Shown: piece after piece, positions 52,290 to 64,000 of the stretch
Layout of the letters: each line of letters opens with the position of its first letter
Position numbering within the stretch: position 1 is the first letter of the stretch
Made by a program: the position numbers and the translations under genes
The notes under the pieces: generated by a model
What the model saw: only the letters and a program-made list of their open reading frames with translations
Database searches by the model: none
What the model was told of the DNA's origin: nothing
Source of the DNA: Patellaria atrata CBS 101060
Taxonomy: Eukaryota
NCBI GenBank assembly: GCA_010093705.1
Contig: MU006096.1
Location: 1,200,004 to 1,264,003, forward strand
Length of the DNA stretch: 64,000 nt
Direction of reading: 5' to 3'

Positions 52290-52295
52290 TATAAA
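52290..52295 (+). promoter_or_regulatory. TATA box of the cellobiohydrolase gene
   Basis: TATAAA 71 bp upstream of the ATG. SYGGRG (CreA-like) hexamers occur at 52045, 52098 and 52224. Confidence 0.5.
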
Positions 52296-52360
52296 GAGAC
52301 TCGCACGCCAAACAGTTCGAGTCGACAGTAGCCCTCAGCAACCCATACAATCATTACAAG

Positions 52361-53769
52361 ATGTACAAATCAGCAGTCCTCGCTTCCCTTTCCCTCCTTT
52401 CGCTCGTCTCCGGCCAGCAAGCCGGTACGTCGACGTCTGAAACTCACCCCAGGCTCACCTGGCAAGACTGCAGCGGCGGTAGCTGCAAGAACGTCAACGG
52501 CGAGGTCGTGCTCGACTCCAACTGGCGATGGGCCCACGTCAAAGACGGCTACACCAACTGCTACACCGGTAGCGAGTGGAACGCAACTGTCTGCCCTGAC
52601 AACGCCTCCTGCGCGAAGAACTGCGCCATTGATGGTACGGACTCATCACTGAAAGTTGATAAGAGGAATTGAAACTGACTGTCCACATAGGTGCTGATTA
52701 TGGCGGGACTTACGGTATCTCCACCAGCGGCAACTCCCTCACCTTGAAGCTAGTCCAGAAGCATGAGTATGGCACCAACGTTGGTTCCCGTGTCTACCTC
52801 ATGGAGAGCTCCAGCAAATACAAGATGTTCAACCTCATCAACAAGGAGTTCACCTTCGACGTCGATGTCAGCAAGGTTCCTTGCGGTGTCAACGGTGCCC
52901 TTTACTTCGTCGAGATGACCGCTGATGGTGGCATGAACAAGGGCCAGAACAAGGCAGGCGCCAAGTACGGAACTGGCTACTGCGATGCTCAGTGCCCCCA
53001 CGACATCAAGTGGATCGCAGGTGAGGGTAATGTCGACGGCTGGCAGCCTTCCTCCGATGACGAGAACGCCGGTGTCGGCAAGTACGGAACCTGCTGCCCA
53101 GAGATGGATATCTGGGAGGCCAACTCCATGGGTGCTGCCTACACTCCTCATCCTTGCTCCACCTCAGGTGGCCCGTACCGCTGCGAAGGTACCGAGTGCG
53201 GTGATGTTGGTGGTGACCGTTATGCAGGTGTCTGCGACAAGGACGGCTGTGATTACTCCCACTACCGTCTCGGTGACCAGGCCTACTATGGCTCAACCGT
53301 GAACGTCCAATCCAAGTTCACCGTCGTGACTCAATTCCTCGGATCGGGCAGCAACCTCAACGAGATCCGCCGCCTCTATAAGCAGGGCGGTTCCGTTATT
53401 GAGAACTCCGTCGTTGCCGTCGACGGTGTCGAAGCCTACGACTCCATCACCGACCAGATGTGCGAGGATGTCAAGGTCGCCTTCGGAGACAACAACCACT
53501 TCAAGCAGCTCGGCGGCTTGAACGAGATGGGTGCCTCGCTCGCTCGCGGCCACGTCCTCGTCATGTCCATCTGGGTCGACTTCTACGCCCACATGCTCTG
53601 GCTCGATTCCACCTACCCCACCGACGCCGACCCGAGCAAGCCCGGTGCGGCCCGTGGTGCTTGCGACACCAGCTCCGGAGACCCCGTTGACGTCATCGCC
53701 AACCAGCCCGACTCCACCGTCACCTTCTCCAACATCAAGTTCGGTGCCATTGGTTCCACCTACAAGTAA
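52361..53769 (+). CDS. GH7 cellobiohydrolase without CBM1
   Basis: Signal peptide, then [24 protein letters not shown], catalytic EMDIWE and MLWLDS. Intron 52635-52690. Ends [14 protein letters not shown] with no linker or CBM. Confidence 0.95.
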
Positions 53770-61470: not shown

Positions 61471-62818
61471 ATGCTCAACTGGGCAAAGGCAACGTGAGAA
61501 ATCTTTTCCTTTTTCGAATCATCATGTATTAACTCCCCTACCATCTAGTCTAGCCAATGTTGCTGGCACACAAGAACCAATATACGGCCCGGACGCCATC
61601 CAAACGGTCACCAAGCAAGCCAAGGAAGTCCCATACACTGAGCTGGTGAAGGATGATCTGCGATGGATCACCATGGAATCAACCTGCGTTGAAACCCAGA
61701 CTTTCTATGTCATGGCGGATGGTGGACCCATTGGCATAGCGCAGGTCATTTACAACAATGTAGCGTGAGAACAGTTCGAAATCACCGTTGGAGATTAGCG
61801 ACTAACGTGCGCATCATAGTGGCCTTAGGACCACAGTTCAATTCACTAGCAAACTATTCTACCAGGACGGCAAAAATTCAAATAGTTGGGCATCCGATGC
61901 ATTGGAGAATTATGGATTCGACTCGGAACGCTACTCCCTTCATGCCGACAATTGTTCCGTTGAACTTTCAGAAGATGGCTCGTCATATACGATCAAATCC
62001 ACGACAAGCTCGCATAGCGTAGTCAATCTGAAGTTCACTAGGATTTCCCTAGGATTTGTTGTGGGGAAGAATGGTACGACTTCCTATGGGACAGATCCTG
62101 CGAATCCCTGGGGCAAGATGCGCCATGCCTTTTGGCCGCGTTGCAAGGTGGAGGGTAGCATTATCACGCAAGCCGGAGACGTAGACATGACCGGGCGGGG
62201 TTTCTTCGTTCATGCTCTGCAAGGCATGAAGCCACATCACGCAGGTAAGGATCTACTTATTATCGCATTGTCACTTCACCTCTGATTAGCTATCACTAGC
62301 TGCTCGTTGGGATTTTGCGAATTTCCAGTCACCCAACTACTCCGCGTTCCAGATGTCTTTCACTACTCCACCCTCATACGGGTCGACCGTCGTCAATGTT
62401 GGGGGTCTTGCAATCGATGACGAGATTGTATTTGCTGGGGCAAGAAATTCAGCAACGCACCTAAAAGTCAAGAGCGATGCGGACAACGATTGGCCTGAAC
62501 CGACCGCAGCTAAATATGTCTGGGACGGGAAGACGAAAGATGGCAAGGACGTTCACCTCGAGCTTGCGGGCAACCTGGGCGAAAGAGTGGATCGGGTCGA
62601 TGTCATGGCTGAAGTCCCTGGTTTCATCAAAGCCATCGTAGCAAGTGCTGCAGGTACCAAGCCCTACGTATATCAGGTATGTCAATTTAGAACACTTGAG
62701 AGAACGGCATTAACCATCTTCACAGTTTGCTTCTAAGCTCACTCTATCTGTCAAAATTGGAGAAGAAGTGAAAGAAGAAGATGGTCTACTCTTCGCTGAG
62801 GCTACCTTCATCTCTTAA
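61471..62818 (+). CDS. SVF1: Survival factor 1 (Svf1)
   Basis: [58 protein letters not shown] and the terminal EATFIS*. Four short introns. Confidence 0.93.
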
Positions 62819-63512
62819 GTCCGTCAGTCTACGCTCACTACGCATGATCAAGTCATCGTATCACTCTGCAGGGCAGAGTAGATTCGATATCCTATAATAC
62901 CTCTCATAGTTTGGACACGCAACTTCTGGCCGGCTGATGGGCTTGTTCCCTCTCTATGAATGCATGATAGAGATGTAAATAGTTACGATTGTGGGAGATG
63001 ATAGATCACAATTGACGTTTGGATACCTACAATTCTACGTCCGTACTCGTACCTATGCTCAACCTAAGTAGTCTTTGACGTATCACTTTCTGTGCCTCTC
63101 ACGTGCAACCGCGTTAAGTGAATATTTTAATATACAGGTTTTTATCTGCCGTGTCCGTTTACACAAGTAGTTTTAAAACCTCACCTCTTGCCTCTTTCCT
63201 CTCACCTTTCTCAATTCTCGTTTTGCTTCAACTTTAATTCCCCCGTACATCCAGCTGTAAGCCATATAGCTCAAAATCGTCGCTCCATCACGTGCCCACG
63301 CACCCCCCACGCGTTCGAGCCCAAATCCTACCCCGCGCACGCGTCCGCCGCACTCATCCGCTCCGAAAACGCACTTAGCGCAGCCTCGTAAGTCTACCTA
63401 AACAAAACATCTGCCATCGAATTTCTACCTCCCTTCATCCCATCTGTTCTTGCTCCTAGCAATTGTTTATCGTTTGTTTACCTTTGGTTTTCTGTTCTGA
63501 GGAGTAAGAATC

Positions 63513-64000
63513 ATGGCTAAATTGGCGGACCGCCAGTCTGTGGTTTCGCCGATGGGTCCGGGGATTGCGAGATACGGGCCCCGTGGCGCTGGGTTGGGGT
63601 CGGGGGGGAAGGGGAAGAAGGGGTTTAAACGGCATAGGTGAGTATATGATATATCTGGTTTGAGATGAATAAAGTTTTGATTGAGGGGGGAGATGTGGTG
63701 ATGGGGAGTGAGATGGGAATGTAGAAGCTGATCTGATGGATTCTAGGAAGATTCTGAGAGATACGATTGATGGCGTCACTCGTGGCAATATCAGGTGAGT
63801 CTACGTTGTGAAGGTTTGCATTTTTAGGTTTACTGATTGAGATGAATAGGCGTATGGCGAGGCGCGGTGGGGTTAAGCGTATCTCAGGAGCTATCTACTC
63901 TGATGTTCGCAGTGTGTTGAAAAGTCGTGAGTCGTTTCCTTGATATTGTAATTTTGGAACTGGATGTACTAACATTGAGGAGGTCTCGAGCTTGTATGAT
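63513..64000 (+). CDS. Divergent histone H4 variant (H4E/hH4v-like), 3' end outside the window
   Basis: Exons 63513-63637, 63747-63794, 63850-63926 and about 63983-63993 splice to [87 protein letters not shown]. Confidence 0.88.

Follow-up and report, generated by a model that had tools for sequence, protein, structure and literature searches.

The gene that begins at position 63,513 of the window, the 64-kb stretch of DNA analysed here (G000:C8:1200004-1264003), is almost certainly the single Patellaria atrata ortholog of H4E/H4v, the histone H4 variant of the Pezizomycotina, as judged from sequence comparison. This assignment is carried by the intron positions of the gene and by its synteny with svf1, with the trees adding weaker support. 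An earlier note on this DNA had proposed that the gene encodes either H4E/hH4v or a lineage-specific variant; introns, synteny, and tree all favor the first option, and the second is not upheld. The gene is thus an ordinary family member and does not represent a novel histone type; it adds one ortholog to a family that has already been surveyed across the Pezizomycotina. Possibly, it is even present in the supplement of that survey (PMC10878826), as may be its introns at 61.1 and 74.1.

The window ends inside the gene. Splice signals read across the window and its continuation (L001, G000:C8:1261503-1265503) give nine exons, eight introns, and an unbroken frame of 141 aa. Four of these exons lie on the plus strand of the window, just as the earlier note had read four short exons that splice to an H4 core; five more lie past the edge, where extension of the gene revealed no stop or frameshift. 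Exon 1 (63513..63637, 125 nt) contains the start codon, a 22-residue N-terminal extension, the altered tail, and the start of the basic patch, and is followed by a phase-2 intron in the codon for R19. Exon 2 (63747..63794, 48 nt) precedes a phase-2 intron in the codon for R35, exon 3 (63850..63926, 77 nt) precedes a phase-1 intron in codon 61, and exon 4 is a microexon of 11 nt (63983..63993) with a GAG acceptor before it and a GTATGA donor after it. The start of intron 4 (63994..64000) closes the window. Within L001 follow exon 5 (2547-2574, 28 nt), exon 6 (2652-2686, 35 nt), exon 7 (2753-2773, 21 nt), exon 8 (2837-2854, 18 nt), which is preceded by an AAG acceptor, and exon 9 (2904-2966, 63 nt including the stop), which encodes a 16-residue C-terminal extension. 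The introns are 49-109 nt long, have GT at every 5' end, and are, in order, of phases 2, 2, 1, 0, 1, 0, 0, and 0. Because six of the nine exons are shorter than 50 nt, gene callers can miss a gene of this kind.

The same eight introns were returned by a spliced aligner whose profile, built from 12 H4E-like cores plus canonical H4 (13 cores), excluded the P. atrata protein; it likewise found the one intron in the core of each canonical H4 gene. For the passage from exon 3 to exon 5, 11 splice paths were tried, and only two, with an exon of either 11 or 14 nt, both after GAG, keep the H4 frame. The 11-nt version has the top score against canonical H4, P0004, and P0242, and the residues that it encodes match the corresponding stretch of P0004. 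Reading through the microexon (an in-frame TGA comes next), skipping it, or using other acceptors truncates or shifts the frame in each case. Two of the eight introns end in a non-YAG acceptor (GAG, AAG), and together with the microexon, these acceptors could limit productive splicing of the transcript. Two sequencing runs, probably of DNA, span the locus without a break, difference, or joint; since the sequence may itself derive from those runs, they lend it no independent support and say nothing about splicing.

In the published H4E pattern, a phase-2 intron is followed by an exon of 29-32 nt, a phase-1 intron, 16 nt, a phase-2 intron, and 88 nt, and phase-0 introns then bound exons of 63 nt (except in the Eurotiomycetes), 21 nt, and, for the Dothideomycetes, 18 nt (PMC10878826; the order 63, 21, 18 is our reading). 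Six of the eight P. atrata introns fit this model; one family intron, the second (i2), is missing, and two, 61.1 and 74.1, are extra. The exon sums match accordingly, with exon 2 corresponding to 32 + 16 = 48, exons 3 and 4 to 77 + 11 = 88, and exons 5 and 6 to 28 + 35 = 63, followed by 21 and then by a penultimate exon of 18, the Dothideomycete length. Canonical H4 in P. atrata has introns at 3.1 and 49.1 only, so that the comparison of intron positions that the earlier note had proposed finds none in common with canonical H4.

Metagenome contigs were scanned for H4 exons that begin right after an intron in codon 35, and 49 loci resulted, of which 11 were dropped before introns were counted (those scoring under 280 or lacking an intron at 35.2). 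The remaining 38 good models collapse to 18 gene types at 90% identity. Seven of the eight P. atrata introns recur among these types, although one of the seven, 35.2, was set by the search pattern and is not evidence. Recurrence is highest for 64.0 (18/18), followed by 19.2 (15/18), 85.0 (13/18), and 92.0 (7/18), and is lowest for 74.1 and 98.0 (1/18 each). Two other family introns, 30.1 and 99.1, occur in nine and three of the types, respectively. The one remaining P. atrata intron, 61.1, which creates the microexon, is found in none of the 18. The metagenome locus L061 has both 74.1 and 98.0 in common with P. atrata and likewise lacks 30.1. Modelled introns at 32.0, 36.2, and 37.2 in some homologs look like aligner errors. 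Among the metagenome loci, L068, L070, L087, and L089 represent an H4E-type gene type with an extra modelled intron at 49.1, a canonical H4 intron position, which may reflect coincidence or gene conversion; the L047-type loci are H4E-type genes with eight introns, including 80.1 and 99.1, and with A or V at the K16 equivalent; and L062, L067, L082, and L091 are divergent H4-like genes that lack the H4E intron set and probably come from non-fungal eukaryotes.

Published synteny places H4E between svf1 and nudA (PMC10878826). In P. atrata, an svf1 ortholog (61556..62819, plus strand; coordinates approximate, 5' end unmapped; PF08622, E 2.3e-48; PF17187, E 1.6e-52) ends 693 nt upstream of H4E on the same strand. 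Among the metagenome loci, svf1 is found within the 1.5-kb flank of 16 of the 49. The sole dynein heavy chain gene (nudA), rather than being adjacent, sits about 33 kb downstream of H4E on this contig, with other genes between. One of the intervening genes encodes an Nbp35/NUBPL-type P-loop NTPase (L008:7192-8142), and an open frame on the minus strand (L009, 7704-9656) is one that we take to be MLH1-like.

A genome search with P0004 gave seven matches, and the five at E 1e-6 or better correspond to the H4E locus and to two canonical H4 loci, one on C3 and the other on C24, where it adjoins H3. When H4E is aligned without gaps to the canonical H4 of its own genome, 60 of 102 positions are identical and 42 differ (53 of 87 are identical over residues 16-102), and the protein has 22 extra residues at its N terminus and 16 at its C terminus. 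Thus, the tail is longer than and unlike that of canonical H4, as had been claimed, and the claimed segment changes are all present (N25T, Q27D, I29V, K31R, P32G, and A33N; E52S, E53D, T54V, and G56S). Six of the 11 lysines are replaced (K5, K8, K31, K77, K79, and K91), and K12, K16, K20, K44, and K59 are kept, in agreement with the retention of K16, K20, and K44 reported in the earlier note. Its statement that the K5/K8/K12 spacing is lost holds for K5 and K8 (K5L, K8G), but in the ungapped register residue 12 is still lysine; additional lysines are present at 10 and 13. The basic patch, residues 16-24, is identical at all nine positions, whereas only 6 of 14 residues are kept in the second half of helix 2 and 6 of 11 in helix 3. 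The protein shares with canonical H4 the histone fold, the patch, K44, and K59, and differs from it in having a sequence that is not near-invariant, longer tails, and, in its gene, other intron positions. Two single-exon pieces of the protein, when tried against Pfam, matched no family.

The longer, divergent N- and C-terminal tails with an altered Lys/Arg pattern are a feature of H4E/H4v. Like the Aspergillus nidulans protein (hheA, AN12228) and the rest of the Pezizomycotina family (Flipphi et al. 2024, PMC10878826), P. atrata H4E combines such tails with a conserved basic patch and an H4 core, and has svf1 as a neighbor and two canonical H4 genes alongside; unlike what the survey describes, it has no Eurotiomycete insertion, and K16 is kept as lysine. 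The comparison with Neurospora crassa H4v (NCU04338) is similar: both proteins align to H4 without gaps (about 60% identity in P. atrata versus 62% in N. crassa), have N-terminal extensions of 22 and 25 residues, respectively, and keep the K16 and K20 equivalents (bioRxiv 10.64898/2026.08.11.744009). However, the 16 extra C-terminal residues in P. atrata contrast with a unique C-terminal part of 35 residues in N. crassa, the K8 acetylation site is a glycine, and the residue that corresponds to K120, a tentative ubiquitination site in N. crassa according to the preprint, is a glutamine at position 95.

Database searches with H4E-like queries mainly recovered tandem or mis-annotated canonical H4s. 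The 27 database proteins that are called H4E-like here are not labelled as such in the database, and neither the A. nidulans nor the N. crassa protein is among them. Three of the H4E-like proteins, from Orbiliomycetes (P0166, P0169, P0174), are 224-352 aa and thus far longer than the H4 core. In a first tree of the 86-column core, P. atrata H4E forms a pair with P0242, a protein from the Dothideomycete Lineolata rhizophorae (97/80); placement beside canonical H4 was not rejected by the AU test (p-AU 0.38), and 86 columns resolve little. In an enlarged tree (LG+G4; 50 rows, with 23 near-redundant rows left out), its sister is L061 (95/90), the two fall within an H4E group of 14 rows (96/88), and the canonical H4s stand apart (95/88). 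The trees therefore group the gene with H4E rows, weakly, given the 86 columns, the p-AU value, and reference H4E proteins that lie outside the set. The published survey likewise obtained no stable H4E tree (PMC10878826).

The AU result would accommodate an independent, lineage-specific duplicate of canonical H4. Nevertheless, the chance of such an origin, or of another histone-fold protein such as CENP-T or TAF6, appears close to negligible. The gene has no intron in common with canonical H4 and seven of eight in common with H4E-type genes, and it neighbors svf1; these intron positions and this synteny already refute an independent duplicate unless they are convergent. As for other histone folds, CENP-T, the one searched for, has a locus of its own on C7 (E 2.1e-41), and such folds resemble H4 far less closely than this protein does with its 61% ungapped identity.

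With membership in the H4E family as the preferred reading, the degree of divergence can be gauged against relatives. P. atrata H4E is identical to canonical H4 at 53 of 86 positions, and the 18 homologous gene types span 41-60 of 86, a range that rules out the idea that this gene is unusually divergent. Thus, the description "strongly divergent" in the earlier note is correct relative to canonical H4 but does not hold relative to other H4E genes. One of the differences, F61R, is common to 22 of the 27 H4E-like database proteins and is found in 0 of 81 other H4s. The family range also bears on a different possibility, namely, that the gene is decaying, with a weak GAG acceptor and a long branch that reflect relaxed selection and with little or no full-length protein being made. 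The GAG and AAG acceptors and the GTATGA donor would fit decay (GAG is used in 2 of 90 modelled acceptors of H4E homologs), as would K79R, which occurs in 0 of the 27 database proteins and 0 of the 18 gene types, the long terminal branch that the first tree gave it (1.01), and the loss of H4E in several orders (PMC10878826). Yet the frame is intact over nine exons, residues 16-24 are unchanged, divergence lies within the family range, and the end branch falls to 0.55 once homologous genes are added. Decay is consequently judged to be quite improbable.

The earlier note had called H4E/hH4v poorly understood, a description that is superseded by a 2026 preprint that assigns Neurospora H4v to the SAD-6/ATRX pathway. 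According to this preprint, SAD-6/ATRX takes H4v from an ASF1-H3 complex and deposits it on disturbed or repetitive DNA, and H4v supports silencing and DIM-2-dependent RIP; of the two RIP routes, the one through DIM-2 requires SAD-6 and the one through RID does not, and nitrogen starvation was the trigger used for SAD-6-dependent remodelling (bioRxiv 10.64898/2026.08.11.744009). By analogy, P. atrata H4E probably works by the same mechanism, which itself comes from one preprint and one species. In this model, H4E would serve as a replacement histone H4 beside the two canonical H4 genes, would be made at a low level, and would be held with H3 on the chaperone ASF1. An ATRX-like remodeller, SAD-6, would then install it in a minority of the nucleosomes wherever DNA is disturbed, repetitive, or foreign. 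Its presence there would allow H3K9me3 to be laid down by DIM-5 and the DNA to be methylated or mutated by DIM-2.

It is the presence of the partner genes that suggests the same pathway in P. atrata. Of 28 SNF2-domain matches in the genome, one, on C3, is closest to ATRX among solved structures (E 6.4e-74; next family, 1.1e-57); this locus consists of open exons of 1017 and 728 codons joined by one intron, and the protein atlas does not name its SNF2 subfamily. An ASF1 gene is present, and the one Pre-SET locus of the genome would, by inference, be DIM-5. A DIM-2-like methyltransferase is encoded by an open frame of 1198 codons, whose best match is 9baq/9bap (E 2e-155), structure entries that we take to be Neurospora DIM-2. 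Genes for SAD-6-, ASF1-, DIM-5-, and DIM-2-like partners are therefore present and look intact. A C5 methyltransferase match and an SNF2 match also adjoin on the same strand at G000:C19:111208-114696 (L034, L042), each in a 2019-codon open frame, presumably the DNMT5 arrangement.

In N. crassa, SAD-6-, ASF1-, and DIM-2-like genes are likewise found with H4v, but P. atrata differs in having a broken RID-type gene. This RID/Masc1-type methyltransferase gene (G000:C6:1004984-1005580, L041), named RID by elimination among three methyltransferase loci, has an in-frame TAG in its catalytic domain at C6:1005103, and no consensus GT intron removes it; its first motif also looks degenerate. Genome defence may thus be relaxed in P. 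atrata, and because SAD-6 is needed for the DIM-2 route only, P. atrata may offer a natural setting in which to test that route alone.

An expressed H4E ortholog need not be devoted to SAD-6-linked silencing, and its job could instead be that of a stress- or starvation-induced replacement histone or some lineage-specific role. The A. nidulans protein is nuclear and binds H3, expression of its gene goes up when nitrogen is withheld at 37 C, and the survey describes neither deletion nor overexpression as having a phenotype (PMC10878826). H4E tails also differ widely between species, which again would fit a different role, as would the broken RID-type gene of P. atrata. However, nitrogen starvation also triggers the SAD-6-dependent remodelling in Neurospora and so is compatible with both roles, and SAD-6-, ASF1-, DIM-5-, and DIM-2-like genes are all present; a role apart from SAD-6 is thus considered unlikely. 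If the SAD-6 role holds, the P. atrata gene provides a test of whether the Neurospora pathway extends to the Dothideomycetes and to a genome with a broken RID-type gene.

Four H2B-facing residues are changed in P. atrata H4E: Y72V, H75Q, Y88F, and K91R. We assume that Y72, H75, and Y88 lie at the H2B interface of H4. For K91, this position has been reported, as has the finding that K91R sends human H4 into heterochromatin that is filled by ATRX/DAXX (bioRxiv 10.1101/2023.09.29.560141). At least two of the four residues are changed in 42 of 45 H4E-type sequences and in 4 of 26 other H4s. Y88 is lost most consistently, being kept in 1 of the 27 database proteins and 1 of the 18 gene types, whereas K91 is retained by 15 of the 27 and by 6 of the 18 (21/45), a result that weakens the candidate idea that K91R alone is a family signal. 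Given that K91 is so often kept and that helices 2 and 3 have diverged throughout, the H2B-facing pattern is a lead only. The four changes are inferred to make H4E nucleosomes looser. A further conjecture, which we regard as doubtful, has two parts: that this worn-down surface, rather than the tails, routes H4E/H4v to SAD-6/ATRX or makes its nucleosomes labile, and that P. atrata, being naturally rid-null, has H4v-SAD-6-DIM-5-DIM-2 as its sole remaining RIP-type route. The human H4K91R/Q patient mutants differ in that they are disease alleles of canonical H4 and require H3.3 and DAXX, which are absent from fungi (bioRxiv 10.1101/2023.09.29.560141), whereas in P. atrata, K91R belongs to a dedicated variant that differs from canonical H4 at 42 positions. 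K91 does not occur in the main text of the Neurospora preprint (bioRxiv 10.64898/2026.08.11.744009), and a literature search returned no paper that joins H4v to the human H4K91 alleles. The P. atrata gene would thus be a test case for whether H2B-facing substitutions mark H4v for ATRX-type deposition, with a link to those disease alleles.

Finally, the 693-nt intergenic region between svf1 and H4E (62820..63512, plus strand) would hold the promoter. It contains two ACGCGT sites, at 63309-63314 and 63339-63344, which are 30 nt apart and are two of the 10 in the window; across the window as a whole, there is no enrichment of ACGCGT (10 seen versus 9.33 expected). This sequence is one that we take to be an MCB-like box. 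Two ACGCGT sites are likewise present in the promoter between H3 and H4 on C24, and homologous H4E loci have three full sites in 7.9 kb of upstream sequence versus none in 9.4 kb downstream. The pair is a weak hint that H4E might be under cell-cycle or damage-linked control. Elsewhere in the window, at 52295-53769, lies a glycoside hydrolase family 7 gene (PF00840, E 3.4e-161) with no obvious cellulose-binding tail at its end.
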